Both the position numbers and the translations under genes were made by a program. A stretch of 64,000 bases of DNA from an uncultured Anaerolineales bacterium (GTDB taxonomy: Bacteria > Chloroflexota > Anaerolineae > B4-G1): NCBI GenBank assembly GCA_964530325.1, contig CAZHAX010000001.1, positions 186,128 to 250,127 on the forward strand, given 5' to 3'. Shown here one piece after another: positions 11,703 to 53,503 of the stretch. The notes beneath the pieces were generated by a model, which had not been told where the DNA came from, searched no databases, and worked only from the letters and a program-made list of their open reading frames with translations. Each line of letters begins with the position of its first letter. Position 1 is the first letter of the stretch.

Positions 11703-12617
11703 ATGAGCACAGGCCGATGGTTGCGGACCGCAGGCATAGCTCGCGCACCGGCTCTCTTGGCCGTGTCCCTCGTGGCGCTGCTTGGCGCCACACTCTTCCT
11801 GCCCAGCCAGACGCCTGCGCAAGCATGCTGGGAGGTAGTCGAGACCCAAGACTGTCCGACGCTGCGGCCTGCCACGCCTTCGCCGGGGTGCAGTCCACTG
11901 CCCACTCCCAGCCCGACTCCTATCGATCTGCCTGTGCAGGCCCGCGTGCCTATCCTGATGTACCACTACGTCTCCGAGCTGCCGGCGGACGCGGATATCT
12001 ACCGGCGTGACCTCACGGTCTCTCCGGAGGGCTTCCGCGAGCAGCTTCAGTATATCGCAGACGCTGGCTATCACGCGGTTTCGCTTGTAGATATCCACCT
12101 CTACCTGACGCGCGGAATCCCTCTGCCGCACAAGCCCGTTGTCCTCAGCTTCGACGATGGCTACATCGATGCCTACGAGGTTGTATTCCCCTTGCTGCTG
12201 GAGTACGGCTTCACCGGAACCTTCTTCGTCCTGGCCACTCCCGCCCACCTGGCATCGCCCGCCTACCTGACCTGGGATCAGATGAAGGAGATGTCTGACG
12301 CAGGGATGGATATCCAGGGCCACGGTAGGGACCACATCGATCTGACCTACGAGTCGTACGACTCGCTCGTCTACCAAATCCTCGGCGTCCGGGAGGCGGT
12401 GGAGGCCCACACCGGTCGAGCCCCGCTCTACTTCTGCTACCCCTCCGGCCGGTACAACGATGATGTGATCGCCGTCGTGGAGGGCGCTGGCTACTGGGGC
12501 GCGGTGACGACGGAGTGGGGCAGGACTCACACCCTGGACGGGGCTTACGTGATGCCGCGCATCCGTATGCGCAGCAGCGACACGCTGGCTGATTTCGTAG
12601 ACAAGCTGGAGGGATAG
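11703..12617 (+). CDS. Secreted polysaccharide deacetylase (NodB/CE4 family)
   Basis: Signal/TM N-terminus. PILMYHYV, VVLSFDDGY, GHGRDHIDL are NodB catalytic motifs. The antisense ORF 11583..12785 is rejected. Confidence 0.8.
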   Translation: MSTGRWLRTAGIARAPALLAVSLVALLGATLFLPSQTPAQACWEVVETQDCPTLRPATPSPGCSPLPTPSPTPIDLPVQARVPILMYHYVSELPADADIYRRDLTVSPEGFREQLQYIADAGYHAVSLVDIHLYLTRGIPLPHKPVVLSFDDGYIDAYEVVFPLLLEYGFTGTFFVLATPAHLASPAYLTWDQMKEMSDAGMDIQGHGRDHIDLTYESYDSLVYQILGVREAVEAHTGRAPLYFCYPSGRYNDDVIAVVEGAGYWGAVTTEWGRTHTLDGAYVMPRIRMRSSDTLADFVDKLEG

Positions 12618-12632
12618 GTCGAGCGGAATGAA

Positions 12633-12672
12633 GGGGCGGGAGTCTACCCCGCCGCCCCTATCTTCAATCTGA
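12633..12672 (+). terminator. GC-rich hairpin plus U-rich tail downstream of deacetylase gene
   Basis: ggggcggg agtcta ccccgccgcccc followed by tatcttcaatctgatagctttt. Confidence 0.4.
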
Positions 12673-12678
12673 TAGCTT

Positions 12679-12702
12679 TTGACAGGGCCGCGGTGGTATA
12701 TT
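12679..12702 (+). promoter_or_regulatory. Candidate promoter for mevalonate operon: TTGACA then TGgTATATT extended -10
   Basis: ttgaca at 12679-12684. tggtatatt at 12694-12702 (TGn-extended -10). Spacing to the -35 is short (12 nt), so it probably functions as an extended -10 promoter. The track ORF 12679.. begins inside this element. Confidence 0.35.
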
Positions 12703-12804
12703 GATGCTGGACCGCCGGGGCCCGTCTGCGTACCGGCGGCTCCTATACGTCTGGAACCTATCTGTCTAATGGCAGGTGATAGCAACGGTGGCAGGTGTTC
12801 CCGT

Positions 12805-14079
12805 ATGGCCGGTTTCTACAGCCGGCCTCCGCAGGAGCGGATCGAGCTGGTCAGCCGTTGGGCAGCCCTGTCGCCAGAGGAAGCCAGCGTGCTAGGGAGC
12901 CGATGCGCGCTCGACTTGGCGCTGGCTAGTCGGCTGGTCGAGAACGTCGTCGGAGTGCACGGCCTGCCGCTCGCCATCGCGGTCAACTTCGTGGTTAATG
13001 GGCGAGACGTGTTGGTGCCCATGGCGGTGGAGGAGCCATCGGTGGTAGCCGGGGCCTCGGCCGCAGCCAAGCTGGCTCGCGAAGGCGGTGGCTTCAAGGC
13101 AGAGGCGACGGCACCGGAGATGATCGGCCAGCTGCAGGTACTGAACGTTGCCAATCCGGAACAGGCCCGCAGCCGCTTGCTGGAGTCGCGGGACGAGTTG
13201 CTGGCGCTGGCGGACGAGACGGATCCCGTGCTCGTCGGTCTGGGAGGAGGGGCGCGCGATCTGGAGGTGCGTCTCCTGGAGAATACGCCCGCCGGGCCGA
13301 TGCTCGTCGTCCACCTGATCGTCGACTGCCGGGATGCGATGGGAGCGAACGTAGTCAACACGGCGTGTGAAGCGCTGGCCGGTCCAGTAGAGCGGATCAC
13401 CGGTGGCAGGGTAGTGCTGCGGATCGTATCGAACCTGGCCGACAGGCGGTTGGCGAAGGCGCGCTGCTCGTTGCCTGAGGAGGGGCTGGCGCGAGACGAG
13501 TACTCGGGAGAAGAAGTGGCTCGGGGAATCGTCGATGCCTGGGCCCTGGCCGCGGCAGATCCGCACCGGGCTGCGACTCACAACAAGGGGATAATGAACG
13601 GCGTAGATGCAGTCGTTGTTGCCACAGGGAACGACTGGCGGGCCGTAGAGGCTGGGGCCCACGCCTATGCCGCTCGCACCGGGCGCTATGCCAGCCTGAC
13701 TACCTGGCAGCGCGATGGACAAGGCAATCTGGCCGGCGAGCTGGAGATGCCCCTGGCAGTGGGCACTGTGGGCGGAACGACGGGTGCCCATCCGACGGCG
13801 CAGGTCGCCCTCAAGATCCTGGGCGTGGAGACTGCAGGCGAGTTGGCAGAGGTGATCGCCTCGGTGGGCCTGGCTCAGAACCTGGCCGCGCTGCGGGCGC
13901 TGGCCACTGAGGGGATTCAGCGCGGCCACATGCGCTTGCATGCACGGCAGGTTGCGGCCGCCGCCGGTGCCCGCGGGGATGACATCGAGGAAGTTGCAGA
14001 GGGGATGCGGAGCGAAGGCACCATCCGGCCGGACCGGGCGGAAGCGATACTCGCACAGATCCGCAAACGGGACGTCTGA
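12805..14079 (+). CDS. Hydroxymethylglutaryl-CoA reductase, class II
   Basis: MAGFYSRPPQERIELV start with aggtg SD 7 nt upstream. ENVVG, DAMGANVVNT (class II signature, versus DAMGMN in class I) and GTVGG are present. About 425 aa, like P. mevalonii HMGR. Confidence 0.85.
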   Translation: MAGFYSRPPQERIELVSRWAALSPEEASVLGSRCALDLALASRLVENVVGVHGLPLAIAVNFVVNGRDVLVPMAVEEPSVVAGASAAAKLAREGGGFKAEATAPEMIGQLQVLNVANPEQARSRLLESRDELLALADETDPVLVGLGGGARDLEVRLLENTPAGPMLVVHLIVDCRDAMGANVVNTACEALAGPVERITGGRVVLRIVSNLADRRLAKARCSLPEEGLARDEYSGEEVARGIVDAWALAAADPHRAATHNKGIMNGVDAVVVATGNDWRAVEAGAHAYAARTGRYASLTTWQRDGQGNLAGELEMPLAVGTVGGTTGAHPTAQVALKILGVETAGELAEVIASVGLAQNLAALRALATEGIQRGHMRLHARQVAAAAGARGDDIEEVAEGMRSEGTIRPDRAEAILAQIRKRDV

Positions 14080-14105
14080 GCGGCGGCCCTTGTAGCTGTC
14101 ATCAC

Positions 14106-15179
14106 ATGAGTGGGAATACAGTCGGCAGCATATTGAAGCCTGATCGCGACGTCGGCATAGTGGGCTACGGAGCCTACCTGCCCAGGTACCGGCTGCCCGC
14201 CACTCAGGTGGCCCTGATCTGGACAGGCGAAGAGGGCGGGACGCCAGTGAAGGGCAAGGCCGTCGCCGGGCTGGACGAGGACGTGGTCACGATCTCGATC
14301 GAGGCGGCCCGCAACGCCGTCGCCCGGGCGGGTGAGCTGGACCCCGCTCTGATCCGGGCGGTGTGGGTGGGCAGCGAATCCCACCCTTATGCCGTGAAGC
14401 CGACCTCGACGATCGTGGCGGAAGCGATAGGCGCGACGCCTTTCACGCAGGCTGGCGACCTGGAGTTCGCCTGCAAGGCGGGGACGGAAGCGTTGCAGGC
14501 TGCCACTGGCTTCGTCGGCTCGAAGATGGCGGACTACGCTATGGCCGTAGGTGCCGATACGGCTCAGGCGAGGCCGGGCGATGCGCTTGAATACACAGCT
14601 GCCGCCGGCGGAGCGGCGTTTCTCGTGGGACCGGCTGGGGACAGCCTGGCCGTTTTCGAAGGCTCGCTCTCCTACGTAACAGACACCCCTGACTTCTGGC
14701 GCCGCGCGCACCAACCATATCCCTCCCACGGTGGCCGCTTCACTGGCGAGCCCGCCTACTTCAAACACGTGTTCGCCGCTGCAGCAGGCCTGATGGAGGG
14801 GATAGGGACGGGGCCGGGCGACTACGCCCACGTTGTATTCCACCAGCCCAACGTCAAGTTCCCTCAGACGGCGGCCAAGAAGCTGGGCTTCACCCAGGAG
14901 CAGTTCGAGGCCGGCCTTGTGGGCGGTGACATCGGGAACACCTACGCCGGGTCGTCGCTCATCGGGCTGACGGCTGTGCTTGACCTGGCGAAGCCGGACG
15001 AACGGGTGCTGCTCGTCAGCTACGGATCAGGCGCCGGGTCGGATGCCATATCTCTCCGGACGACGAAAGCTCTGGCCCAGCGCCGAGGCCGGGCGCTGCT
15101 CACGCGCGACTACATTGGCAGGCACACTGAAATCGACTACGGGACCTACGTCAGGTACAGCGGGAAGCTGCTCATATGA
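14106..15179 (+). CDS. Hydroxymethylglutaryl-CoA synthase, short archaeal-type (about 357 aa)
   Basis: VGIVGYGAYLPRYRL and SEAVGA..FTQAGDLEFACKAG are thiolase-fold condensing enzyme motifs. Length and N-terminus match the archaeal HMGCS that complexes with thiolase and DUF35. Confidence 0.8.
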   Translation: MSGNTVGSILKPDRDVGIVGYGAYLPRYRLPATQVALIWTGEEGGTPVKGKAVAGLDEDVVTISIEAARNAVARAGELDPALIRAVWVGSESHPYAVKPTSTIVAEAIGATPFTQAGDLEFACKAGTEALQAATGFVGSKMADYAMAVGADTAQARPGDALEYTAAAGGAAFLVGPAGDSLAVFEGSLSYVTDTPDFWRRAHQPYPSHGGRFTGEPAYFKHVFAAAAGLMEGIGTGPGDYAHVVFHQPNVKFPQTAAKKLGFTQEQFEAGLVGGDIGNTYAGSSLIGLTAVLDLAKPDERVLLVSYGSGAGSDAISLRTTKALAQRRGRALLTRDYIGRHTEIDYGTYVRYSGKLLI

Positions 15180-16336
15180 GAGAAGTCGCGGTCGTGGGCG
15201 TGGGGCAGACACCGGTGGCTGAGCACTGGGGTCTCTCGCTGCGTCATCTGGCCCTGCAGGCCGTTGAGGCTGCCGTGGCTGACGCCAGTGTGCCACAGAT
15301 CGACGCGCTCTACGTGGGGAACATGCTGTCCGGCGAGCTGGCCGGGCAGGAACATCTCGGCGCGCTGATCGCCGACTTCTCCGGTATGCGAGGGATCGAA
15401 GCGTTCAAGGTCGAGGCGGCTTGCGGCTCCGGCGCGGCGGCGCTTCGCCTGGGCTACCTGGCGGTAGGCAGCGGTGCAGCGGACACGGTCCTCGTCGTCG
15501 GCGTGGAGAAGATGACCGATGCGCTCGCCGAAGACACGACAGCGGCGCTTGCCCTTGCAGCCGATGGGGAGTACGAGGCTGCGCAGGGGGTCTCCTTTGT
15601 GGCCCTCAACGCCCTTCTGATGCGGCGTTACATGCACGAGTTCGGATACAGCCAGGCCGACTTCGCCGGCTTCGCGGTCAACGCCCACCGCAATGGGGCC
15701 AACAATCCGCAGGCAATGTTCCAGTTCGCGCTGAAGGCGGACAGGTTTGCCGCCGCCCGGATGATATGCGATCCGATCAACCTACTCGATAGCTCGCCGG
15801 TCTGTGATGGTGCCGCCGCCGTTGTGCTCGCGCCCGCGGAGCAGGCGGGCGATCTTTCAGCCGCGCCAGTGCGGATCGCCGCGTCCGCAGTGGGCACGGA
15901 TGCCCTGGCCGTGCACGATAGGAGCGACCCAATGGTGCTGGCCGGGGCCGCCATTGCCACACGGCGAGCCTACGATCAGGCCGGTGTCGGTCCCGATGAG
16001 ATCGACCTCTTTGAGTTGCACGGAGCCTTCGGCATAATGGCTGCGTTGAGCCTGGAGGCTGCGGGATTCGCGGAGAAGGGGAAGGGAGTCCGTCTGGCGA
16101 TGGAAGGCGAGATCGGGATTGAAGGGCGGGTGCCGATTGCCACAATGGGCGGGCTCAAGGCCCGCGGCCATCCAGTGGGTGCCACCGGCGTATATCAGGC
16201 AGTGGAGGTCGTGCAGCAGCTGCGCCAGCTGGCCGGAGCGAACCAGGTGGCGGACGCACGAGTGGGAATGGCCCAGAACATCGGCGGCAGTGGAGCGACG
16301 GCCTTCACCCATATCTTCGTCAGGATGGATGAGTGA
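15176..16336 (+). CDS. Acetyl-CoA C-acetyltransferase (thiolase), archaeal/SCP-x-like type
   Basis: MREVAVVGVGQTP...EAACGSGAAALRLGYLAVGSG is the thiolase active-site Cys context. ATGA overlap with HMGCS. Confidence 0.8.
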   Translation: MREVAVVGVGQTPVAEHWGLSLRHLALQAVEAAVADASVPQIDALYVGNMLSGELAGQEHLGALIADFSGMRGIEAFKVEAACGSGAAALRLGYLAVGSGAADTVLVVGVEKMTDALAEDTTAALALAADGEYEAAQGVSFVALNALLMRRYMHEFGYSQADFAGFAVNAHRNGANNPQAMFQFALKADRFAAARMICDPINLLDSSPVCDGAAAVVLAPAEQAGDLSAAPVRIAASAVGTDALAVHDRSDPMVLAGAAIATRRAYDQAGVGPDEIDLFELHGAFGIMAALSLEAAGFAEKGKGVRLAMEGEIGIEGRVPIATMGGLKARGHPVGATGVYQAVEVVQQLRQLAGANQVADARVGMAQNIGGSGATAFTHIFVRMDE

Positions 16337-16376
16337 AACGAAGCCTCCGGCCTGCTGTCGGCGCGGAGGCTGACCG

Positions 16377-16811
16377 ATGAGTAGAGAATTATGTGGGAGG
16401 ACTAGGATGAGTCTGGTTACGGATTGGAGAATCAACGCCCAGCGCTACCGGCTCGTTGGGGAGGTCTGCGAGGCGTGCGGCGCCAAGTTGTTCCCGCCGC
16501 GGGACGTCTGCCCCGAGTGCGAGGCAGCGGCCAAGACGCCTTTCGCATTCAGCGGCCGGGGAGAGGTCTATTCCTACAGCACGGTGCACCACGCCCCTCG
16601 TGGCTTCGAGGAGTTCGTGCCCTACACTGTGGCACTGGTCAAGCTCGAGGAGGGCCCACTGGTGACAGCGCAGCTCACTGACGTCGATGCCGACGACGTG
16701 AGCATCGGTATGCCGGTGGAGATGGTCACCCGCAAGATCCAGTCTGGGGACGAGCGGGACGTGATTGTCTACGGCTACAAGTTCCGGCCGGCGATGGCCG
16801 CCGCTGCGTAG
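16377..16811 (+). CDS. DUF35 OB-fold/zinc-ribbon protein (scaffold of thiolase/HMGCS complex)
   Basis: CxxC...CxxC zinc ribbon (CEACGAKLFPPRDVCPEC) followed by an OB-fold region. Alternative start at 16407. Confidence 0.7.
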   Translation: MSRELCGRTRMSLVTDWRINAQRYRLVGEVCEACGAKLFPPRDVCPECEAAAKTPFAFSGRGEVYSYSTVHHAPRGFEEFVPYTVALVKLEEGPLVTAQLTDVDADDVSIGMPVEMVTRKIQSGDERDVIVYGYKFRPAMAAAA

Positions 16812-16900
16812 CCCGCTCTACATAATCACAGTGTCCGGCCCAGTGTAGGGGCGACCCAAGCGTCGCCCCTATTGGTGTCCCACGGGCGGTAACAAACGCC

Positions 16901-18340
16901 ATGCGCCTGGCCCTGATCAACACGAACAGGATCAAACCCCCGATCGCTCCAATCGGCCTGGAATACGTCGCCGAGGCGGCGGACTCTGCCGGGCACGAGG
17001 TGCAGGTCCTCGACCTCTGCTGGGAGGAGGACGTCGATACCGCCATCGCCGGCTTCCTGCGCAGTTCTGCCTTCGATCTGATCGGCCTCACCCTCCGCAA
17101 CACCGACGATTGCTCCTTCGCCACCCGGGATTCGTTCGTCGGCGACCTGGCCGATCTGGTGACGTCGATACGGGCATCCGCCGAGGCGCCGACAGTCCTG
17201 GGGGGCGTTGGCTTCTCCGTGATGCCGGAACCGATCCTGGAACTGACCGGCGCCGACCTGGGCGTCTGGGGTGACGGCGAGTTCGCCATCGCCGCGCTCG
17301 CCGATTGTCTGCAAGCCGGGGCGGACTGGCGGGAGCAGGCGGCCCGGTCCCCGGCGAACCTCCCCGGAGTGGTCTGGAAGGCCGACGGAGAATGGCGCCG
17401 CAACCCCCCGTCCAAGCGGCCGCTGTCCGACCTGCCCCCGATGCGCAGGAACTGGGTCGACAACGCCCGCTACTTCCGGGAGGGCGGCCAGGCGGGGATC
17501 GAAACGAAGCGCGGCTGCCCGGGGAATTGCGTCTACTGCGCGGACCCGGTGGCGAAGGGACGAGAGGCCCGGCTGCGGCCCCCCGGGGCGGTAGTCGACG
17601 AGCTGGAGACGCTGCTGGCGCAGGGGGTCGATCACTTCCACACCTGTGACAGTGAGTTCAACATCCCCGAGACACACGCCCAGGCGGTCTGCGAGGAGAT
17701 CGTGGCCCGCGGGCTGGGGAGCCGGCTGCGCTGGTACGCCTACTGCGCTCCTGTCCCCTTCTGTGCCCAAACGGCTTCGCTGATGCGCCAGGCGGGCTGC
17801 GTGGGCATCAACTTCGGGGTCGACAGCGGCGACGCGGCCATGCTCAAGCGGCTTCGTCGAGCCTTCACCCCTGAGGCGATCCTCGAGGCAACACGCCTCT
17901 GTCGCGCACAGGGGATCACCGTGATGCTCGATCTGCTGCTCGGCTCGCCGGGCGAGACGAGGGACAGCCTGACCCGGACCGTAGAATTGATGAAGGCATC
18001 CGGCGCGGATCAGATCGGCGTGGCCCTCGGCGTACGTATCTACCCGGGCACGGAGCTCTGCAGCCGGCTGGAGCGGGATGGCCCGGCAGAGGGCCTTGTG
18101 GGCCGCGGGGACGCGTTGGAACCGCGCTTCTTCATCGAGCCGCAGGTGGAGCCCGGGGCCGGGAAGCTGCTGGACGAGCTGATCGCCGGGGACGAGCGCT
18201 TCCTCTTCTTCGATCCCTCCCGGCCGGAGAAGAACTACAACTACAACGCCAATCAGCGCCTGGTCGATGCGATCAGCGCAGGATACCGCGGCGCCTACTG
18301 GGACATCCTGCGCCGCTACAGGCCGGCTGCCGAGCCGTAG
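16901..18340 (+). CDS. B12-binding domain radical SAM protein
   Basis: N-terminal cobalamin-binding-like Rossmann (RLALINTN...DLIGLT). ETKRGCPGNCVYC is the CxxxCxxC radical SAM cluster motif. The antisense ORF 16826..19495 is rejected. Confidence 0.75.
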   Translation: MRLALINTNRIKPPIAPIGLEYVAEAADSAGHEVQVLDLCWEEDVDTAIAGFLRSSAFDLIGLTLRNTDDCSFATRDSFVGDLADLVTSIRASAEAPTVLGGVGFSVMPEPILELTGADLGVWGDGEFAIAALADCLQAGADWREQAARSPANLPGVVWKADGEWRRNPPSKRPLSDLPPMRRNWVDNARYFREGGQAGIETKRGCPGNCVYCADPVAKGREARLRPPGAVVDELETLLAQGVDHFHTCDSEFNIPETHAQAVCEEIVARGLGSRLRWYAYCAPVPFCAQTASLMRQAGCVGINFGVDSGDAAMLKRLRRAFTPEAILEATRLCRAQGITVMLDLLLGSPGETRDSLTRTVELMKASGADQIGVALGVRIYPGTELCSRLERDGPAEGLVGRGDALEPRFFIEPQVEPGAGKLLDELIAGDERFLFFDPSRPEKNYNYNANQRLVDAISAGYRGAYWDILRRYRPAAEP

Positions 18341-37372: not shown

Positions 37373-38719
37373 ATGAGCGAAGGGCGCACTAGCGTGGAAC
37401 AAGAGCGAATCAAGGTACTGATAGTCGACGACATCGGGGAGACCCGGGAGAACCTGCGTAAACTGCTGTCGTTCGATCCCGGCATCGAAGTGGTCGGTGC
37501 GGCGGCGTCCGGGCCTGAAGGCATCGAGATGGCCAAGGAGTTCCTGCCGCATATCGTGCTGATGGACATTAATATGCCGGACATGGACGGCATAGCGGCC
37601 ACGGAGGCGCTGCTGCAGGAAGTGCCCAACGCCCAGGTGGTTATCGTCTCCGTTCAGGGCGAGACGGACTACGTGCGCCGGGCCATGCTCGCCGGTGCGC
37701 GCGATTTTCTGACGAAGCCGCCCAGCGGTGACGAGCTCATGAGCACCATCCGGCGCGTGCACGAGAAGGGCCGCTCGCGGCGGGAGATGGTTCCTGCCGA
37801 AGCTACTGCCGATGGCCAGCGCAAGCAGAAGGCGGCGCCGAAGGAGGATGCGCGCGGCGACGTGATCGCTGTATTCGGTCCCAAGGGCGGCGTGGGCTGC
37901 ACCACAATCGCCGTCAATCTGGCGATCGCAATGCAGGAGATGGCCGGAGATGGCGGGAAGGTCGCGCTGATAGACACCAGCCTTCAGTTTGGAGACGTGG
38001 GGGTAATGCTCAACCTGAGGGCGAATCGCAGCATAGCTGATCTGGCTGACGAGATACTAGAGGTGGACAGCGACTTGCTCAGCAGCGTCATGACCGCCCA
38101 CGGCTCCGGGATCAAGGTCTTGCTCGCCCCGCCTCACCCGGAGGCTGCGGAGAGCCTAATCTCAGGCACTGCCGGCGAGCGTGCGGGAGGAGACCGCAAG
38201 CTGAAGCGAATACTGGAGGTGGCGAAGCGCGAGTTCAACACTGTGGTCGTGGACACCTGGAGCTGGCTTGACGACAACGCCCTGACCGTCTTCGACGTAG
38301 CCTCGCTGATCGTTCTGGTTGTGGATCCGTCGATACCGGCGATCAAGAGCGCCCGCCTCCTGCTGGAGGTGGCCGGCAAGCTCGACTACCCCATGGCCAA
38401 GATCGCGCTGATCGTCAACGGAGCGGGCAAACGCTCGTTGGTTCGCCGTGAGCAGATAGAGCAGGCCTTGATCCCGGTGATGGCAGAAATACCTGTGGAC
38501 GAGCAGGCTGCCGAGGAGGCGGCGAACCGCGGTGTTCCGCTGCTGATGCGCGATAGGAGCCGGCCCATCTGTCAGAGCCTAATGGAACTGGCGTCTAAGA
38601 TCCAAGAGCGGCTCGCGGTGCCGGAGGAAGCCGAAGATACCGAAGAGGCGATTCCGTCGGCGCTGAAGGGGTCTGGAGGCACAGGCCTGCTCCGGTTGAG
38701 AAAGGTCTTCGAGAAGTAG
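37373..38719 (+). CDS. cpaE: CpaE/TadZ pilus assembly ATPase (N-terminal receiver domain + MinD/ParA-like P-loop ATPase)
   Basis: IKVLIVDDIGETRENLRKLL...IVLMDINMPDMDG is the REC domain. VIAVFGPKGGVGCTTIAVNLA is the deviant Walker A of MinD/ParA/CpaE. Confidence 0.85.
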   Translation: MSEGRTSVEQERIKVLIVDDIGETRENLRKLLSFDPGIEVVGAAASGPEGIEMAKEFLPHIVLMDINMPDMDGIAATEALLQEVPNAQVVIVSVQGETDYVRRAMLAGARDFLTKPPSGDELMSTIRRVHEKGRSRREMVPAEATADGQRKQKAAPKEDARGDVIAVFGPKGGVGCTTIAVNLAIAMQEMAGDGGKVALIDTSLQFGDVGVMLNLRANRSIADLADEILEVDSDLLSSVMTAHGSGIKVLLAPPHPEAAESLISGTAGERAGGDRKLKRILEVAKREFNTVVVDTWSWLDDNALTVFDVASLIVLVVDPSIPAIKSARLLLEVAGKLDYPMAKIALIVNGAGKRSLVRREQIEQALIPVMAEIPVDEQAAEEAANRGVPLLMRDRSRPICQSLMELASKIQERLAVPEEAEDTEEAIPSALKGSGGTGLLRLRKVFEK

Positions 38720-38849
38720 CCTTGCTGCACAGGCGAAGCGCTGGGCGTGTACGAAGTGCAGGAAGACGATGAACTGGATCCGACCCGGTCGGACCAATGC
38801 TTGGTTGGTAGATCAGCACTGAGTACGCCCGGGGTGGAGAGGTGAGTGG

Positions 38850-40223
<1,374 letters not shown>

Positions 40224-40306
40224 GCGGCGGGCGGCGTTGAGGCGTGTGCGCACATAGCGCGTGAGAAGCGAGAGACAGACGGCTGGGGTTAGGCAGTAGA
40301 CTGAAC

Positions 40307-41251
40307 ATGTCGATCGTGTACTTCGTTCCGTTGGGTCTCGGTTTCCTTCTGCTTGTCGTCGGCTTTGTGATGTCGCGGCGCTCGTCGAGCTCGCTTATTG
40401 AGGAGCGGCTCGGCATTAGCGATGAGCCGGTCGAGGTCACAGAGGGCGTCAGCAAGCGCAAGTCCCCCGTGGGAGAGGCGCTCACACGCGTGCTAGCCCA
40501 GCGGGGCGTGGGAGCCGGGTTGAGCACGCAGCTCGCACAGGCGGATCTCAAGCTTACCGTCGGCGAGTTCATAGCCGCCACAGTAGTCCTCGTCATTGTC
40601 GCTTCAGCTCTGGCCTTCGTCTTGGCCGGGGACGTTCTGATAGTGGGCGTGGTTGTCCTGGCCGGAATCTTCTTGCCACGCTTCTATCTGAAGAGGTTGC
40701 GTGGCCAACGGCTCAAGAACTTCAACGACCAGTTGGGCGATGCCTTGAACCTGATCGTCAACTCCCTGCGAGCCGGCTACAGCGTCCTGCAGGCCATGGA
40801 ATCGGTGGCCCAGGAGATGGGCCCGCCCATGTCTGTAGAGTTCGGACGGGTGCATCAGGAAGTGCAGCTGGGTCTGACTCTCGAGGATGCGCTGGCACAC
40901 ATGACGCGGCGAATCACCAGTGAAGACCTGGACATGACGGTCACCGCCATAAACGTTCAGCGCGAGGTCGGCGGCAACCTGGCGGAGGTGCTGGACTCGA
41001 TCAGCCATACGATTCGCGAGCGTGTGCGCATTCGGGGTGAGATCCGGGCCCTGACGTCCTACGGTCGCGGAGCGGGTACGATGCTCAGCGCCATACCCAT
41101 CATCCTGTCCGGGTGTATATACACCATTCAGCCGGATTTCATGTCCGCGATGTTCACCCACACATGCGGCTATATCCTCACAGCAGCCGCCGTGTCGGGC
41201 ATCGTCCTTGGCTATGTCATCATCCGCAAGATCGTGAACATCGATATCTAG
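40307..41251 (+). CDS. tadB: Flp pilus assembly membrane protein TadB (GspF-like)
   Basis: Polytopic with T2SSF-like cytoplasmic domain (FNDQLGDALNLIVNSLRAGYSVLQAMESVAQEM). Confidence 0.8.
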   Translation: MSIVYFVPLGLGFLLLVVGFVMSRRSSSSLIEERLGISDEPVEVTEGVSKRKSPVGEALTRVLAQRGVGAGLSTQLAQADLKLTVGEFIAATVVLVIVASALAFVLAGDVLIVGVVVLAGIFLPRFYLKRLRGQRLKNFNDQLGDALNLIVNSLRAGYSVLQAMESVAQEMGPPMSVEFGRVHQEVQLGLTLEDALAHMTRRITSEDLDMTVTAINVQREVGGNLAEVLDSISHTIRERVRIRGEIRALTSYGRGAGTMLSAIPIILSGCIYTIQPDFMSAMFTHTCGYILTAAAVSGIVLGYVIIRKIVNIDI

Positions 41252-41271
41252 CGGGTCGGGGGAATGCTACG

Positions 41272-42222
41272 ATGACTGGTGTGCTGATTGTGGCTGCTCT
41301 AGTCTTGCTGGGCGGCGGCATCGCGGTCGCGGTTGGTCTGTCCCGCTCCCGCGAGCCGGTGACCATAGAGGACCGTATCGCTGAATTCGCCACTCTGGAG
41401 CGGCCGCCCACCTTGGAGGAGCTGGAGCTCTCTGCGCCCTTCTTCGAGCGGGTGCTCATTCCGATGCTCCGATCGATCTCTGAGCTGGTCGGGCGACTCA
41501 CGCCGAGGCAGCAGATCGAGGCGACACAGCACAGTCTGGAACTGGCCGGGTATCCGTACGGGTGGGGCTCCGCTGAGTTTGTCGGCGTTCGGCTGCTGGC
41601 CACGCTGCTGCTGGGCGCGATGGGCGTGGCGCTGTCTGTCCTCGGCCAGGACCTGCAGTTCCTTGTGCGGATCCTGCTGGCCGTGGGTGGTGTCGTGGGC
41701 GGATACTATCTGCCGTCGCTATGGCTCAAGAGCAAGATTAGCCAGCGGCAGCGAGCAGTGATCAGGGCCCTGCCGGATGCGCTCGACCTCCTCACCATCT
41801 GCGTTGAGGCCGGCCTGGGCTTCGATGCTGCCATGGCCAAGGTGGCTGAGAAGTGGGACAATGAGCTGAGTCAGGCCTTCTCACGTGTGATCCAGGAGCT
41901 CCAGTTAGGCAAGCTCAGACGTGAGGCCTTGCGCGATATGGCCGACGGCATGGAAGTGCCGGACATCTCGTCGTTCGTGGCAGCCATCATCCAAGCGGAC
42001 CAGCTTGGCGTCAGCATCGCCCGGGTGCTGCGGATTCAGTCTGACCAGATGCGGGTACGGCGGCGGCAGAGAGCCGAGGAGATGGCTCGTGCAGCGACGC
42101 TCAGGATCCTTCCCCCGGTGGCATTCTTCATCTTCCCTTCGATCTTTGTCGTGCTGCTTGGGCCGCCGATGATCCAGATGTTGACCTCGGACGTAGGTCT
42201 CTTCTCTTTCGGGGGTTTCTAG
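41272..42222 (+). CDS. tadC: Flp pilus assembly membrane protein TadC (GspF-like)
   Basis: T2SSF-like (ALPDALDLLTICVEAGLGFDAAMAKVAE...). ATG at 41272 is the internal Met of the track ORF 41113. Confidence 0.8.
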   Translation: MTGVLIVAALVLLGGGIAVAVGLSRSREPVTIEDRIAEFATLERPPTLEELELSAPFFERVLIPMLRSISELVGRLTPRQQIEATQHSLELAGYPYGWGSAEFVGVRLLATLLLGAMGVALSVLGQDLQFLVRILLAVGGVVGGYYLPSLWLKSKISQRQRAVIRALPDALDLLTICVEAGLGFDAAMAKVAEKWDNELSQAFSRVIQELQLGKLRREALRDMADGMEVPDISSFVAAIIQADQLGVSIARVLRIQSDQMRVRRRQRAEEMARAATLRILPPVAFFIFPSIFVVLLGPPMIQMLTSDVGLFSFGGF

Positions 42223-46605: not shown

Positions 46606-47037
46606 TCAGCACAGGGTTGCTCTTATCAATGCCACCGCCCGGCTCGTCACCCGGCGGTACGATGTTCCTGGTGGGATGCTGGCGATCAGGATCAAGTTCT
46701 CACCGTCCAGGCTGATCTCGCGGCAGACCAGTCGCGCGCCATCGCTGGTGCGTAGCGTCACTTCGTCCACGTCGGCCAGCCCCAACTGCTTCTGTGCCTC
46801 GCTGCCGGCCTTCCGCAGAACTGCTATTAGAGCCGCCGTCGTGTCGCTGCTGTACTCGGCGGGAACGGTGGCTATCGGCAGGCCCTTGGAGGAGGCCAGC
46901 ACCACGGCGCGGAAACCGCCTTCCGCGTAAGCGGCGGCCAGGGCCTCGTCCAGGGAAACTGGCTGCGACCTCTTGCCTTTCGTTCTCCTAGCGCTCATTT
47001 GCAGGACCTCCTGTGGTGTCACGTCGCTCTGTCGCAC
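46606..47037 (-). CDS. Roadblock/LC7 domain protein (MglB-like), immediately downstream of mglA
   Basis: GFRAVVLASSKGLPIATVPAEYSSDTTAALIAVL...ENLILIASIP is the Roadblock signature. 5-nt gap to mglA. Confidence 0.7.
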   Translation of the reverse strand: MRQSDVTPQEVLQMSARRTKGKRSQPVSLDEALAAAYAEGGFRAVVLASSKGLPIATVPAEYSSDTTAALIAVLRKAGSEAQKQLGLADVDEVTLRTSDGARLVCREISLDGENLILIASIPPGTSYRRVTSRAVALIRATLC

Positions 47038-47041
47038 CTGA

Positions 47042-47626
47042 CTACAGCTGCCTCTGAGCCTTGGCCACGACCAGGTTGATGATCGCCTTCAAGGTCTCGA
47101 AGACGCCCGTGCCCTCCGTAGCCACCGATTCCAAGCACGGCACTCCGTTGAAGCTGAGCTGCTGCTGCATCACGTGGACGGGCACGATGTCCAGCAGATC
47201 CCGCTTGTTGCACTGCAGCACGAGGGGCATGGTTCTGGAATCGCAGCCCAGATCCATCAGGTTCTCGTCCATATTGCGGCGCATATCGACATTGGCCCGC
47301 TCCCGATCCTGCTGGGAGTCGGCGACGAACACAATCCCGTCTGCCCCTTGCAGTACCAGCTTCCGGCTGCCTACGTAGTAGACCTGCCCTGGCACTGTGT
47401 ACAGATTGAAGCGCGGCTTGAGCCCGGCGATCTGGCCCAGCTCCAGCTGCAGAAAGTCGAAGTAGATGGTACGGTCGCCGCGCGTCTTGAGCGACACCAA
47501 CTCGCCCCGGATCTTGGGGCTTGTCTTCAGGTGGATGTACTGCAGGTTCGTCGTCTTGCCGCTGAGTGCGGGCCCGTAGTACACGATCTTGAGGTTGATC
47601 TCACGCAGCTTCCAGTTGATGAACAT
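47042..47626 (-). CDS. mglA: MglA-family Ras-like small GTPase
   Basis: [32 protein letters not shown]...[13 protein letters not shown]...YTVPGQVYY...QCNKRDL is near-collinear with M. xanthus MglA ([49 protein letters not shown]). Confidence 0.9.
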   Translation of the reverse strand: [194 protein letters not shown]

Positions 47627-47641
47627 TGGCCGTGTCCGGTT

Positions 47642-48130
47642 CTAGAGCCCGCCGAATTCCTCTTCCAGCGCGCTGGCCAGAGCTGCGCCGAAGTCCGCAC
47701 CTGGCCCATCCTGCGTGGAGACCAACATCTGCTCGAATCCCTCTGTCAACTCGTGCAGCTCGGTTGCCGCCCGTCCGGCGAAGAGCCTGACCAGGCCCAC
47801 CAACGTATCCGAGCTGAAGATAACAACCAGTATGAAGGTCCCTCCCACGTTGTACAAGTAGATGTTGTGCTTCTCTCCTTCGTGGAGAAAGGCCCCGCTG
47901 GGCTGCTCTTCTCCGATCAGCCTGTTCAGCTCGGCCGTTGCCGCCAGATCACCGGCCGCCAGGGCGGCGACAAGCGTTGGATCGGTCTCCAGTCTGCCCT
48001 GGGCGGCGACCAGCCGGCCTGTGATGTCCGCGAGCAGGACGCATTCGGCGCTCGTCTTCTCGCGCAGATGCGCCATTACTCGCTCAATCCGATCTGACAT
48101 CTCCTCTGGCAGCGCGAAGTCGCTCGTCAC
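47642..48130 (-). CDS. Roadblock/LC7 domain protein
   Basis: ECVLLADITGRLVAAQG...HNIYLYNVGGTFILVVIFS is the Roadblock fold pattern. Confidence 0.65.
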   Translation of the reverse strand: MTSDFALPEEMSDRIERVMAHLREKTSAECVLLADITGRLVAAQGRLETDPTLVAALAAGDLAATAELNRLIGEEQPSGAFLHEGEKHNIYLYNVGGTFILVVIFSSDTLVGLVRLFAGRAATELHELTEGFEQMLVSTQDGPGADFGAALASALEEEFGGL

Positions 48131-48260
48131 GTGAGTACCTCGATTCTCGGTGCTGTACCGGTGGGTTGTGCGACGCGCGGCGGCAGTTGGGCAGTTCGTT
48201 ACCGCCTCCAGCGCGGCCGTTCACTAGCGTCGCTCAGGTGTCAGGGTGCCTAGGCGATCG

Positions 48261-48752
48261 TCAGCGTCTCAGTGTCGACGCCATCATCTCGGCGCGGGTC
48301 ATCCGCCTGCCGTCTTCAGGCCCGGAGCCGTCGTCCTGCTCCGCCTTCGCGGCTGCTGCAGCCGGCGCCGGCGTCGCAGCTACTGGAGCTCCGCTCAGGT
48401 CGATCTCCTTGATGCGCTGGCGCAGCTTGCCCACAGCCACGTCCGCCGTGAGGTTCAGCAGCGGCACGTTGATGCGCCGAACGCATATAATCCCGAGCAC
48501 GCCGCCTTCGGACCCAAGCCCTTTGACGATCAGGCGGCTGTCGGCGTACAGCAGGTCGATGTCGCCAACCTTTCTGCGCCGGGCAGTGTGCAGCCCGGCA
48601 ACGGTCTGCGCCATCGTGCGCGCCACAGGCGATAGGACGGCGTCGTCAAAGACCTCCGGGAGGGCCCTGGCGAGCATTTCCCCATCGCTGTCGCAGACGA
48701 ACGAGCCGGTCACTCCGACAACGGCATTGACGTCCTGCAGTATTTCTTCCAT
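48261..48752 (-). CDS. Roadblock/LC7 domain protein, CxC/LNLTA subfamily (paralog of 4579..5238)
   Basis: MEEILQDVNAVVGVTGSFVCDSDGEMLARALP...GIICVRRINVPLLNLTADVAVGKL. Start at the internal Met (48752). Confidence 0.65.
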   Translation of the reverse strand: MEEILQDVNAVVGVTGSFVCDSDGEMLARALPEVFDDAVLSPVARTMAQTVAGLHTARRRKVGDIDLLYADSRLIVKGLGSEGGVLGIICVRRINVPLLNLTADVAVGKLRQRIKEIDLSGAPVAATPAPAAAAAKAEQDDGSGPEDGRRMTRAEMMASTLRR

Positions 48753-48929
48753 CACACTAACCTCCACTGCCAACTCGTGAGACCTGCACGCCACCGGACG
48801 CTACGTTGTGGGCGGATGCCCTCCAGGCGACACGGGTCCCAGCAGTATCCGCCTGGCTCGATCCTCGCGGTCGGTCCTGAACCTGCTCGACGCTCCACGT
48901 CCGTTCTCTGCGCTGACAACTGCACGCTG

Positions 48930-49424
48930 CTACTGTGCATCCTTTCTAGAGCTCCTGCCTGTCGACGTGCGACTGAGAACCGCCAGCATTTCTGTCTTGG
49001 TCATTGGCTCGGGAGCCGCTTTCGTGCCCGCTTGCTCACGCGGTTGTGTCTGCAGCAGGGCTCCTGCTGCTTTCATCTCCGCGATCATCTGCTCCAGCTT
49101 CCTGGCGGCGAGGTTTGCCGTGACGTTCAGAAGTGCCACGTTGATTTGGGCTATGCAGACCAGACATAGGCAGCCCTCTGTGCCCAGGGGTTTGAGTATG
49201 AGCCGGCCACCATCGTACATCAGGTCGATGTCCCCCATCTTGCTCTTCCCGTTCGTCTTGGCAGCAGCAACGATCTTCGCTACTGCCTCCATGACGGCTT
49301 GGGGGGGAGATGCCTGGCTCACGCCTGGCGACATCACGTGCTCCAAGAGCTTCCCGCCATCGGAGACGACAAAGGCGCCGATCACTCCATTAACTGCGCT
49401 GATGTCCATCAGGATGTTTCGCAT
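48930..49424 (-). CDS. Roadblock/LC7 domain protein, CxC/LNLTA subfamily
   Basis: MRNILMDISAVNGVIGAFVVSDGGKLLEH...CLCLVCIAQINVALLNVTANLAARKL. Confidence 0.65.
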   Translation of the reverse strand: MRNILMDISAVNGVIGAFVVSDGGKLLEHVMSPGVSQASPPQAVMEAVAKIVAAAKTNGKSKMGDIDLMYDGGRLILKPLGTEGCLCLVCIAQINVALLNVTANLAARKLEQMIAEMKAAGALLQTQPREQAGTKAAPEPMTKTEMLAVLSRTSTGRSSRKDAQ

Positions 49425-49448
49425 CTTGCACCGTCCTGCCTGCTGCGT

Positions 49449-49772
49449 CTAGCCAAGAGCTTCCCGCGCGCTCGAGGCGACTATCGCTGGTGAGGCTCTG
49501 TCCGCCAGGAGCAGACCTACGTAGTAGTCTGGCTGCTCCATTACGAGCACAACCTCGTTGCCAATCGTCACCGTGCCCCAGTCGAAGGGGCCGAGGGCGA
49601 GCGATTCGCTCGCCTGGCTCGCCGCGTTGCCAACGAAGACGGCGACAGCCCCTTCCTTGTCCGGACTGGCATCGTTGAGCTCGTGGGCCAGCACTATTCC
49701 ATCACGTGCAGCTATCACCACCCCGTCCACTCCATCGATCTTGCTCAACTTGGCGGCCAATTCCTGTATCAT
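49449..49772 (-). CDS. Roadblock/LC7 domain protein (minimal, 107 aa)
   Basis: KIDGVDGVVIAARDGIVLAHEL...WGTVTIGNEVVLVMEQPDYYVGLLL. Confidence 0.7.
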   Translation of the reverse strand: MIQELAAKLSKIDGVDGVVIAARDGIVLAHELNDASPDKEGAVAVFVGNAASQASESLALGPFDWGTVTIGNEVVLVMEQPDYYVGLLLADRASPAIVASSAREALG

Positions 49773-49844
49773 TCCGATGCCTCCCTTCAGCCTCCCGAGC
49801 CGTCTTGTCTGGACCGGCGCCGCCTGCCCGGATAGCGCGCTTAC

Positions 49845-50315
49845 CTAGGTCCAGAGATCGAGCACCTTCTCCAGGATGCCCTCGGTGCTCTGGGCCATGG
49901 CGGGCTCCCGCCCTGGCCCCTGCTCAGGGGATGATTGCTCTGGTATTGTCTTCCTCTTGGGTAGTTTCTTGATCATTCGTCCCAGCTTTCGGGCGGCCAC
50001 GTTGGCCGTCAGATTCACCTGCGACACGTCGGCGTGGGGAGCACACAGTATGCACAGGCAGCCCGAGCCGGAGACCTTGACGACCAGCCGTCCGTTGCTG
50101 CAGTGGAGGTCGACTTCGCCGACGTCAGACAAGCTCACGCTCTTCAAGCCGGTGACGATTTGGGCCACGCTGGACGCCGCGCACCCCTGTGCTGTACCGT
50201 TGCCGCTTCCGGGGGGCACCGCGACCGCGAGTAGCGCGCCATCCCCATCGCAGACGAATGAGCCAATCACTCCGTATATCGCGTTGATGTCACTCAGTAT
50301 GCTGTCCATCGCCAC
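49845..50315 (-). CDS. Roadblock/LC7 domain protein, CxC/LNLTA subfamily
   Basis: MAMDSILSDINAIYGVIGSFVCDGDGALLA...CLCILCAPHADVSQVNLTANVAARKL. Confidence 0.65.
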   Translation of the reverse strand: MAMDSILSDINAIYGVIGSFVCDGDGALLAVAVPPGSGNGTAQGCAASSVAQIVTGLKSVSLSDVGEVDLHCSNGRLVVKVSGSGCLCILCAPHADVSQVNLTANVAARKLGRMIKKLPKRKTIPEQSSPEQGPGREPAMAQSTEGILEKVLDLWT

Positions 50316-50328
50316 TCGTTCTGAGCTT

Positions 50329-51396
50329 CTAGTGCAAGGCTTGCTTGGCGCTGGCCGCTACGTTGGCGGCCGATGCCCTCTGGTTGAGCAGCATCCCTAC
50401 GAAGTAGTCTGGCCGCTCCATCAGCAGCATCTTCTCCTTGCCGAGCGCCACCGTGCCCCAACTGAAGCTGCCAAGAGACAGCGGCTTTCCCAGTTGGCCG
50501 GCGGCACCCAGCACGAGAACGGCTATGGAGCCCCTGTTTCCGGGCGCGTCATCCAACTCGTGGGCGACCACGGACCCGTCGTGCGCAACGACGACGACCC
50601 CTGTGACACCCTGTATATCCTTGAGAGCGCTGGCCAGGTTCGCGGCTACCTGGTCACCGTCGACTTCGGTCTCATCAGTGAGGAGCTCCAGGTCGACCAA
50701 GCCGGCCATCCCCTCGTCCATGCGGCGGGCGCCTTCCAGCAGCAGTCCGGACCAGCTGCCCTCGATCGTCCTCTTGGGAGCGGAGACGCCCATCTGCAAC
50801 TCGAATTCCCCCTCTTCCCAGGTCAGGAGCTCATAGACGGCATCCGCGCCTGTTTTCTTACCCAGGGCGGCGTGGACGACGTTGCCTTCGGCGAAGTAGA
50901 CCTTGCCTTCTTGGCCGGCCTGCCGGATCCGGAGTAGCGCCTCGTTCCGCTCTGCGCAGTTGATCTGCACGATGTTGGGCAGACTCAGGCTGCGCAGGTT
51001 GCCCTGAACGACCGCGCCACCCTTCGACTCCAGGATACGGCGCACCGCCGCCACCAGGGTCTTGGCATCGAGGGGCTTCTCCAGGAACTCGCAGGCGCCA
51101 AGCTGCAGGGCCTCGACTACGTTCTCCTTCGTGCCGTAGGCCGTGAGGATTGCGACTGAGGCCCGTGGGTTGTGCTCTCTGATCGCGGCCAGAAGCTTGA
51201 GGCCGTCCATGCCGGGCATCTTCAGGTCTGTGACCACGAGGTCGAAGTCCTCGCTCCGGTACAGCTTGATCGCGCTGGCGCCGTCCGAGGCTCCCTCGAC
51301 GGAGAAGCCTTCCAGCTGGAGTATCCTCTTGCACGTCTTGACCACGTTGGGTTCGTCGTCTACCACTAGAACGCGTTTCTGAGCCATTGCCACCAC
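50329..51396 (-). CDS. Response regulator receiver + DUF4388 (PATAN-like) + C-terminal Roadblock/LC7 domain
   Basis: REC (RVLVVDDEPNVV...LVVTDLKMPGMDG...KPL). The middle region LPNIVQINCAERNEALLRIRQAGQEGKVYFAEGNVVHAALGKKTGADAVYELLTWEEGEFEL matches the DUF4388 consensus as I recall it. The C-terminus IQGVTGVVVVAHDGSVVAHEL...WGTVALGKEKMLLMERPDYFVGMLL is a Roadblock domain closely related to 49449..49772. Confidence 0.75.
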   Translation of the reverse strand: MVAMAQKRVLVVDDEPNVVKTCKRILQLEGFSVEGASDGASAIKLYRSEDFDLVVTDLKMPGMDGLKLLAAIREHNPRASVAILTAYGTKENVVEALQLGACEFLEKPLDAKTLVAAVRRILESKGGAVVQGNLRSLSLPNIVQINCAERNEALLRIRQAGQEGKVYFAEGNVVHAALGKKTGADAVYELLTWEEGEFELQMGVSAPKRTIEGSWSGLLLEGARRMDEGMAGLVDLELLTDETEVDGDQVAANLASALKDIQGVTGVVVVAHDGSVVAHELDDAPGNRGSIAVLVLGAAGQLGKPLSLGSFSWGTVALGKEKMLLMERPDYFVGMLLNQRASAANVAASAKQALH

Positions 51397-51425
51397 TCCC
51401 TCATTCAGTCAGCTAACGCCTGCTC

Positions 51426-52455
51426 CTAGCCGTCAAGCTCCGGCGGAATGATTCCCTTTGCCACTGCCGATTCATAGTCCAGCAGCTCTCTGTCCTCCTC
51501 GTCTCCGTAGAGGTCCTGTGCCTCGAGTTCCTTCCGGCTGGGGCCCGGAGCCGGCGCGGCGGCGGGCCTGGCCTCACCTGATGCCTCAGACAGCACCGCA
51601 TCAAGCTCTGCCATCAGCGAGGAGCCGAACTCCGCGTCCAGTACCTGAGCGGGCACGCTGGCCGTGCTGTCAGCCAGCGTGTTCATCAGGCTCTCGACCG
51701 CTCTCCTGGTGTAGAGCCACACAAGCCCAATCCGGCTTGCCTGGGCCTTCCGATCGTAGACGATGGCCAGGAAGAAGTCCTCCCCCACGTTGGCGGAGTA
51801 GATCTCGTAGCGCGCACCCTCGTGGAAATTGAGGTTGATCGCATTGCCACTGCCGAAGTACTCGGCCAGCCCTCTGGCGGTAGCGAAGCCGCCTGCCAAC
51901 AGCGAAAGCAGGGCAGAGGGATCCGGCCCCAGCTGGCCCCCGGCCTGTGCCAGGCGCTGGCCCAGCATGTCCGCCAGATGTATCGACTGGGCGCCGATCT
52001 CACGCCGCAGCTCCTCCAGGTGCTTGGTGATCTCCTCAAAGGTCTGATCCGAGAGGATGACCAGGCCCGGTTGGCTCATCGCCTCGTCCGGAAGAGCCCT
52101 CTGGACCGCCTTCATGAGCACGTCCACCTTGAGGGGCTTGGAGATGTATCCGGCTACACCCAGGCTGCGGGCCTCTTCCTCGATCGCGCTGCTGCCGTAT
52201 GCGGTCACCAGAATCGAGCGCGTCTCCGGGCTGGAGGTCTTCACCTGCCGAATCAGCTCCAGGCCGCTGATCCCCGGCATTCTCAGGTCCGTGACCATCA
52301 GGTCCACGTCTTCCTTCGAGATGGCTTGCAGCGCCTCCTCGCCGGACTCGACTACCGTGACCCTGTAGGTCTGGTTCGAGCGCTCCAGCACCTTCTTCAG
52401 AAAGGCCGCTACCGACGGCTCGTCGTGCGCAATGAGGATGTGTTTCTGGGCCATT
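51426..52455 (-). CDS. Response regulator receiver + Roadblock-like C-terminal domain
   Basis: REC (HILIAHDEPSVAAFL...LMVTDLRMPGISG...KPL). C-terminal FHEGARYEIYSANVGEDFFLAIVY is Roadblock-like. ATG at 52455 is the internal Met of the track ORF. Confidence 0.7.
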
Positions 52456-52608
52456 TGCCTATATCTGCTCTCGCGGAAGCAGTACCGAGCCGTTTGGCCC
52501 TGGCTTCCGTCAGCATCTCTATCAACAATATAGCACAAGGGGCACGGTTTGTGGGTTCCGAGAACCTCCCACACAGGGTGCAGTTACGTTCCGGCAGGCG
52601 TAGCCTGC

Positions 52609-53457: not shown

Positions 53458-53503
53458 CGCTACATCTTCCAGTCGAGCGTCCGGCCTTGCTGCGGGTATG
53501 GGT

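Follow-up and report, generated by a model that had tools for sequence, protein, structure and literature searches.

We analyzed a 64,000-nucleotide stretch of DNA from an uncultured Anaerolineales bacterium (assembly GCA_964530325.1, contig CAZHAX010000001.1, positions 186,128 to 250,127; this whole stretch is called the window below), focusing on four co-oriented open reading frames (ORFs) on the plus strand at 12805–16811. In order, they encode a 3-hydroxy-3-methylglutaryl-coenzyme A (HMG-CoA) reductase (HMGR), an HMG-CoA synthase (HMGCS), a thiolase and a small DUF35 protein (Table 1). The ORF listing of the window agrees with the coordinates given in the original prediction, and all four ORFs are on the plus strand. 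The tight packing that it described is also real: the HMGCS and thiolase genes overlap by ATGA at 15176–15179, the HMGR–HMGCS gap is 26 nt, and the thiolase–DUF35 gap is 40 or 70 nt, depending on which DUF35 start is chosen. The ATG at 16407 is the more likely of the two starts, because a GGGAGGA Shine–Dalgarno sequence precedes it, gene callers choose it (giving 134 aa), and the alignment with chain E of the archaeal complex structure 6ESQ begins there. The overlap and the short gaps fit a single transcript. Quite probably, these genes form a transcription unit that covers the three opening reactions of the mevalonate (MVA) pathway in an Anaerolineae-like member of the Chloroflexota, and the unit was inherited within that lineage.

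Table 1. Features of the mevalonate-entry locus (positions are those of the window; kcal/mol values are predicted folding energies)
Feature	Position	Strand	Remarks
Weak GC-rich hairpin without T-run	12633..12658	+	Follows upstream polysaccharide-deacetylase gene; fold of 12620–12680, –22.4 kcal/mol, z –1.6
Conserved 16-nt box, TGATAGCTTTTGACAG	12670..12685	+	Direct repeat TGATAG-N4-TGnnAG in –35 region; candidate operator or promoter element
TGn-extended –10-like element, TGgTATATT	12694..12702	+	TAnAnT at fixed 11-nt distance from box across loci; kept in related loci L003, L004 and L006
Inverted repeat CCGCCGG-N14-CCGGCGG	12712..12739	+	In presumed 5' leader; arms invariant in window, L003 and L004; loop varies
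Class II HMGR, 424 aa	12805..14079	+	PF00368; TIGR00532
Archaeal-type HMGCS, 357 aa	14106..15179	+	TIGR00748, NF003274; 6ESQ_I match
Archaeal-type (SCP2-like) acetoacetyl-CoA thiolase, 386 aa	15176..16336	+	NF004720; start overlaps HMGCS stop (ATGA)
DUF35 scaffold protein (zinc ribbon and OB fold), 134 aa	16407..16811	+	PF12172, PF01796; alternative start 16377
GC-rich hairpin, TAGGGGCGAC-loop-GTCGCCCCTA	16846..16871	+	3' of DUF35 gene; 61-nt stretch 16830–16890, –31.7 kcal/mol, z –2.8

Three of the four proteins belong to the families that make up the archaeal thiolase–HMGCS–DUF35 complex, as had been proposed. HMGCS scored well above the cut-offs of the archaeal models TIGR00748 ('HMG_CoA_syn_Arc'; 481 bits, cut-off 353) and NF003274 (504 bits, cut-off 244), whereas it reached only 106 bits against the bacterial model TIGR01835 (cut-off 360), and so it does not side with bacterial MvaS. 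Its best match in the PDB is 6ESQ_I (57% identity, E 1e-120); the MvaS structures of S. aureus and E. faecalis scored only 72–79 bits. The catalytic tetrad, E91/C123/H246/N278, is intact, and the same four residues (ECHN) are found in 81/81 related loci. In the archaeal complex, the tetrad of Methanothermococcus thermolithotrophicus HMGS (E82/C114/H238/N270) is essential (PMC12960953). The small ORF is a DUF35 protein by hidden Markov model (HMM), with a PF12172 zinc ribbon (E 4e-9) and a PF01796 OB fold (E 6e-25). Both CxxC pairs of the rubredoxin-like ribbon, CEAC and CPEC, are present as zinc ligands, and the best PDB match is 6ESQ_E (45% identity, E 4.5e-34). The thiolase passed the subfamily model NF004720 (460 bits, cut-off 420); it is 55% identical to its best PDB match, 7YVY, with 6ESQ_A second best (E 4e-82). 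Cys83 (in AACGSG), His282 and His332 (in RGHP) are all in place.

The reductase is a class II enzyme, as the original prediction had it from the DAMGAN motif. It scored 417 bits against the class II model TIGR00532 (cut-off 260) and only 48 bits against the class I model TIGR00533 (cut-off 442). The motifs ENVVG and DAMGAN (residues 177–182) are present, and catalytic residues E77, K261, D277 and H375 are intact. Its best solved match is 6DIO, aligned over the full length without gaps at 58% identity, and the Pseudomonas mevalonii enzyme (1QAX) follows with a nearly equal score (E 1e-146). Asp140 aligns with D146 of the P. mevalonii enzyme, which we take to be an NAD determinant, and this alignment is a hint that the reductase uses NADH. 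In archaea, the usual HMGR is not of class II, and the closest solved class II enzymes are proteobacterial and NAD-type. The module is thus a mosaic in which a class II reductase is combined with condensing enzymes of archaeal type.

We placed the operon by its scores relative to HMM cut-offs, by comparison with PDB structures and by the taxonomic labels of its nearest relatives. A protein scan of 185,579 species, with one genome each, found at least 595 relatives of HMGCS, and the best 80 of these (62–76% identity) were taken as related loci. Apart from one bin titled just 'uncultured bacterium' and two contigs that are probably mis-binned, all are labelled Anaerolineae, Thermoflexia or other Chloroflexota. 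These two contigs, L058 (DATGQJ010000626.1) and L063 (JAHHHY010000001.1), labelled as metagenome-assembled genomes of Oceanobacillus sp. and Pleurocapsa minor, respectively, carry a Chloroflexota-type operon with the upstream box described below and are probably binning contamination. When the four proteins were located by tblastn, the order HMGR–HMGCS–thiolase–DUF35, on one strand, was seen in the great majority of the 80 loci where the contig was long enough. The closest relatives share the upstream polysaccharide-deacetylase gene too. GC content of the operon (0.65–0.67) and its GC3 are the same as those of flanking genes, and the very same proteins are encoded on contigs of three metagenome samples, SRR8556428, JGI 3300057034 and 3300031355. 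The conserved order, matching GC and GC3, and shared upstream gene indicate that the operon is a trait of the lineage and not a recent import. The original prediction had left the choice between horizontal acquisition and ancestry; these data favor ancestry within MVA-using Chloroflexota and speak against recent transfer. Any archaeal transfer would be ancient.

The tripartite complex itself reportedly occurs in some bacteria too, according to the 2018 structure paper of Voegeli and coworkers. Within the Chloroflexi, acetoacetyl-CoA thiolase (AACT), HMGS and class II HMGR were previously placed with or near the archaeal enzymes, the phylum was found to contain both MVA and methylerythritol phosphate (MEP) clades, and an archaeal origin of the MVA genes was proposed as likely and ancient (Hoshino & Gaucher 2018, PMC6107057). 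A working alternative mevalonate pathway is known in Roseiflexus (R. castenholzii; Dellas et al. 2013, PMC3857490), and an archaeal mevalonate pathway is noted for Ca. Promineifilum breve, another member of the Chloroflexota, in PMC13001223 (citing Kanno 2024). Archaeal-type mevalonate entry in the phylum is therefore already known, and the window adds one more uncultured member. The available main texts on the Chloroflexota pathway make no mention of DUF35, the four-gene operon, the upstream box or the degenerate thiolases described next.

The thiolase departs from its relatives at one position. Its HDxF motif is incomplete and reads HGAF, with Gly283 in place of Asp (window 16022–16024). This Asp is invariant in the other operon thiolases that we aligned (64 from genomes and 32 from metagenomes, ∼96 in all) and in 7YVY. 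Gly283 is encoded by GGA, and under the genetic code two substitutions separate this codon from one for Asp. An identical protein is present in at least two other assemblies, so the substitution is not an assembly error. Identity to the nearest active-looking orthologues is 75–78%.

In most relatives, the operon thiolase has diverged much further. The nucleophilic Cys is replaced by Gly, Asp, Glu or Asn at 52/64 genome loci and 17/32 metagenome loci. These Cys-less copies are full length, occupy the thiolase position after HMGCS, and usually lack the His of the GHP motif as well, while the HMGCS tetrad is kept; examples, among loci L008–L082, are L008:7077–8210, L028:7060–8199 and L018:7107–8255. 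In L018, the Cys-less copy after HMGCS is accompanied by an intact thiolase after DUF35. The best model for the Cys-less copies is the same thiolase subfamily model, with scores below its cut-off, and they diverge faster than their neighbors (median identity 51%, versus 67% for HMGCS). Archaeal HMGS expressed alone is reported to be inactive (PMC12960953), which makes a structural, pseudoenzyme role of the Cys-less thiolase plausible. Together, these comparisons suggest that the Cys-less protein acts as a structural partner for the synthase. Judged by its residues, the window thiolase is in the competent-looking minority of the lineage, and its own lineage, which keeps the Cys but has Gly in place of Asp283, might represent an intermediate.

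The region upstream of HMGR contains a second unusual element. Alignment of this region with those of the two nearest species revealed a near-invariant stretch around the –10 element. Across loci, this resolves into a box with consensus TGATAGnTTTTGnnAG, followed exactly 11 nt downstream by TAnAnT. Positions G1, A4, G5, T8–T10, G11 and G15 of the box each carry 2 bits of information, and A14 carries 1.9. Two TGnnAG half-sites, set 10 bp from each other and separated by a T-rich spacer, make up the box, which sits in the –35 region. Allowing up to two mismatches, we found 69 sites before HMGR (or before HMGCS where HMGR is absent) in related Chloroflexota loci and a further 32, sometimes in tandem, in the spacer before DUF35. 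Elsewhere in these loci (1.7 Mb, both strands) there were almost no matches. The 64-kb window has a single match, versus 0.04 expected by chance. In metagenomes, for which the search pattern fixed only 16 bases, at least 123 matches were obtained, the 123 listed lying on 120 stretches. Among those listed, 79 are within 450 nt upstream of HMGR (63), DUF35 (13) or HMGCS (3), and most of the remainder fall within AT-rich contigs or at the end of a contig. Four of the listed matches outside the MVA operon, three of them independent, precede a gene for a DUF4153 membrane protein by 217–252 nt (L121:3192–4349, L148:3–719, L164:2261–2944 and L195:175–972). From this arrangement, the DUF4153 gene may be a second member of a box regulon.

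The original prediction placed the operon behind a terminator and a TGn-extended –10. Conservation in related species supports the view that the extended –10 is real, whereas the terminator is doubtful: the hairpin upstream of the box is weak, lacks a T-run, and was not called by a terminator scan of 12400–17100. A consensus sigma-70 and terminator scan of this same region found nothing at the 5' end of the operon. Its only promoter-like match was inside the thiolase gene, and its terminator-like matches were intragenic or on the wrong strand. The –10 escaped the sigma-70 scan because the TTGACA-like hexamer is just 12 nt upstream. We considered this hexamer (12679–12684) as a –35 element and rejected it: the spacer is 12 nt, and across loci GATAG, TTTTG and AG never vary whereas the 'AC' does. 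Other genes in this DNA have canonical TTGACA-N16/17-TAnnnT promoters (that of panB is at 18418), which argues that the box is specific to the operon and not a general promoter form. At the 3' end, the hairpin beyond DUF35 is more stable than the upstream one (z –2.8 versus –1.6). This hairpin, which has a weak T-tract, was not called by the terminator scan either; it is probably the end of the transcription unit.

What might act at the box? Its layout resembles winged-helix response-regulator sites such as the Pho box, a resemblance that we offer only as an analogy. In 28/80 relatives (e.g. L008, L011, L015, L018 and L062), a GAF-HisKA_3 histidine kinase gene is divergent from the box-bearing intergenic region, making this sensor kinase one candidate link to control through the box. 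A NarL-type response regulator was sought beside the divergent kinase in those 28 loci and was present in only 1/28, and the window has no GAF-HisKA_3 kinase gene adjacent to the operon. Control of this kind would place a lineage-specific regulator or sigma factor at the box. A limited literature search found no description of it. Taking the two lines of evidence together, we tentatively propose that the mevalonate-entry operon is under dedicated control of an undescribed kind, through a box that replaces the –35 element before HMGR in essentially every relative, and again before DUF35 where that gene has a promoter of its own, and that Cys-less thiolases act as partners of HMGCS.

The operon would work as follows. 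Transcription probably starts past the extended –10, downstream of the box, and ends at the terminal hairpin. By homology to characterized enzymes, the thiolase would condense two acetyl-CoA molecules to acetoacetyl-CoA, an unfavorable step, and HMG-CoA synthase would at once add a third acetyl-CoA to give HMG-CoA, thereby pulling the thiolase reaction. We infer from 6ESQ that DUF35 bridges the two enzymes and that the intermediate is passed via a shared CoA-binding site. The class II reductase, probably NADH-preferring, would then convert HMG-CoA to mevalonate, and genes of the lower pathway would lie elsewhere in the genome. The original prediction that no lower-pathway genes are in the window is borne out. 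Domains of GHMP kinase, IPK, IDI and the MEP pathway are absent from the ∼58 predicted genes of the 64 kb. Decarboxylation-route genes (MPD, or PMDh plus AMPD) were found neither in the window nor beside the operon in relatives, and the conserved operon neighbors in relatives comprise no lower-pathway or MEP genes, only the GAF histidine kinase, the polysaccharide deacetylase and unrelated genes. This fits the report that chloroflexi, unlike most other MVA-carrying bacteria, have no cluster of most MVA genes (PMC6107057). An HMG-CoA lyase (HMGL-like) domain is likewise missing from the predicted proteins of the window, and its absence favors the biosynthetic direction. With HMGR as the first gene and no HMG-CoA lyase, polyketide synthase (PKS) or nonribosomal peptide synthetase (NRPS) in the window, the best reading is mevalonate biosynthesis from acetyl-CoA.

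Several points weigh against a lineage-inherited unit that performs all three steps. The thiolase scored 407 bits against NF053570, the equivalog model of the M. thermolithotrophicus thiolase, which is below the cut-off of 600. Its motif is incomplete, and Gly283 could impair its activity. Since most relatives have lost the nucleophile of the operon thiolase, channelling is evidently dispensable in the lineage. The solved reductases nearest to that of the window include the catabolic P. mevalonii enzyme. The window does not itself evidence a complete pathway, the lower-pathway genes being outside the 64 kb, and the transcript start and end are predictions only. Of these points, those on the thiolase lead to an alternative in which this protein is catalytically compromised and mainly a structural partner of HMGCS, with acetoacetyl-CoA supplied by another enzyme. 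The invariance of Asp283 even among degenerate homologues, with Gly confined to the window lineage, the recurrence of the Gly283 protein in other assemblies, the frequent loss of Cys beside an unchanged HMGCS tetrad, and the inactivity of archaeal HMGS alone all speak for it. Yet Cys83 and both catalytic His are kept, the nearest active-looking orthologues are close, and a catalytic role of the motif Asp is only putative. We regard this alternative as unlikely.

Other readings concern the purpose and source of the genes. A catabolic operon that uses mevalonate or HMG-CoA, like mvaAB of P. mevalonii, might be suspected from the name of TIGR00532 ('degradative'), the rank of the P. mevalonii enzyme just behind the best PDB match, and the Asp kept at the position of its D146, whose role we presume. 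But the partners here are a synthase, a condensing thiolase and a scaffold, which build HMG-CoA; no HMGL-like domain is in the window; and the MVA-using Chloroflexota clade is reported to depend on the pathway for isoprenoids (PMC6107057). A catabolic role is accordingly very improbable. We give hardly any credence to the idea that the trio is a repurposed acyltransferase of the PhlACB/MucABC type, acting in secondary metabolism. Chains PhlA, PhlB and PhlC are the next-best PDB relatives of HMGCS and DUF35, and the window thiolase has the HGAF variant. However, the PhlA score is half that of archaeal HMGCS (197 versus 407 bits), the first gene is that of an HMG-CoA reductase, the window lacks PKS and NRPS genes, and the known acyltransferases have lost the HMGS tetrad and HDxF (PMC12960953), whereas the window retains the tetrad and His282, with only the Asp altered. 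Equally hard to credit is a recent horizontal transfer of the module from an archaeon into this particular bacterium. In its favor, both HMM and PDB matches mark HMGCS, thiolase and DUF35 as archaeal-type, and Hoshino & Gaucher thought an archaeal origin of the Chloroflexi genes likely (PMC6107057). Yet the best 80 HMGCS relatives, bar the three exceptions above, are Chloroflexota-titled and have the same gene order; the 57% identity to archaeal 6ESQ HMGCS is below that of every one of these 80; the closest of them share the upstream gene; GC and GC3 equal those of the flanks; and the cis-element that the lineage has in common upstream of the operon points to a long stay there. Thus, a lineage-inherited unit for mevalonate entry is the reading that we favor.

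This unit can be compared with several known systems. The M. thermolithotrophicus complex (6ESQ, 6ET9; Voegeli et al. 2018, cited in PMC12960953) has the same three families side by side, and the window has in common with it the E-C-H-N tetrad, the Cys and both His of the thiolase, and a zinc ribbon with four Cys. The window differs in its bacterial host, its HGAF in place of HDxF, a thiolase closer to 7YVY, and the class II reductase carried in its operon. With the archaeal-type pathway of Chloroflexota (PMC3857490, PMC6107057), it shares archaeal-like AACT and HMGS, class II HMGR, and lower genes unclustered with the upper ones. Those papers are chiefly about phylogeny and about the lower part of the pathway, that is, MPD and IPK or the anhydromevalonate route. 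The reductase resembles the class II enzymes of P. mevalonii (1QAX) and Delftia acidovorans (6DIO) in its catalytic Glu, Lys, Asp and His and in ENVxG and DAMGAN. The P. mevalonii enzyme, however, is catabolic and paired with HMG-CoA lyase, whereas the partners in the window are biosynthetic. Firmicute mvaS/mvaA/mvaE likewise lead from acetyl-CoA to mevalonate with a class II reductase, but their synthase is on a different branch, thiolase II is used, and there is no DUF35. Finally, the Friedel–Crafts acetyltransferases PhlACB and MucABC (5M3K; PMC12960953) have a homologous architecture of HMGS-like, ACAT-like and DUF35 subunits. A 2026 study that set genuine HMG-CoA-forming complexes apart from repurposed ones found that the HMGS tetrad and the HDxF His are essential in the archaeal complex and that the tetrad and the HDxF motif are lost in PhlACB and MucABC (PMC12960953). 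These enzymes, lacking the HMGS tetrad and the ACAT HDxF, make no HMG-CoA; the window, by contrast, keeps the tetrad and the motif His.

The remainder of the window has bacterial gene content, including an ECF (extracytoplasmic function) sigma factor with an anti-sigma zinc finger, HPF, a Tad pilus, type III pantothenate kinase (CoaX), CoaBC and numerous proteins of two-component systems. Scans of the window gave no match to rRNA, tRNA or Rfam families. A B12-binding radical SAM gene (16901–18340) begins 30 nt past the terminal hairpin and has no counterpart beside the operon in the 80 related loci. Farther on, 1.8 kb downstream of the CoA-dependent module, lies a full pantothenate-to-phosphopantetheine cluster (panB, panE, panC, panD, coaX and coaBC; 18644–23767), in which panB has its own canonical TTGACA-N16-TATAAT at 18418. 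Both the radical SAM gene and the pan/coa cluster were considered as members of the module and rejected, as neither adjoins the operon in the 80 loci. A large Tad/Flp-type pilus locus occupies 27241–42222, with genes for TadE-like and TadG-like proteins, a 1274-aa CARDB protein, CpaB, a REC-ParA-like ATPase, TadA and two TadB/C proteins. On the minus strand at 46606–55117 are small genes, including two for Roadblock/LC7 proteins, followed by three response regulators (one with DUF4388) and a REC-GAF histidine kinase; this cluster resembles an MglB-type polarity or motility signalling cluster.

The occurrence of archaeal-like MVA enzymes in Chloroflexota matters for debates on the origin of isoprenoid biosynthesis and on the lipid divide, and the window leaves that case unchanged. 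If confirmed, the box and the Cys-less thiolases would bear on efforts to engineer the complex for isoprenoid production. The box would also offer a first way into the regulation of an archaeal-type mevalonate pathway in a bacterium. The Cys-less thiolases, for their part, would represent a channelling complex that is turning one of its enzymes into a pseudoenzyme scaffold, mirroring PhlACB and MucABC, in which it is the synthase-like subunit that lost its catalytic residues.

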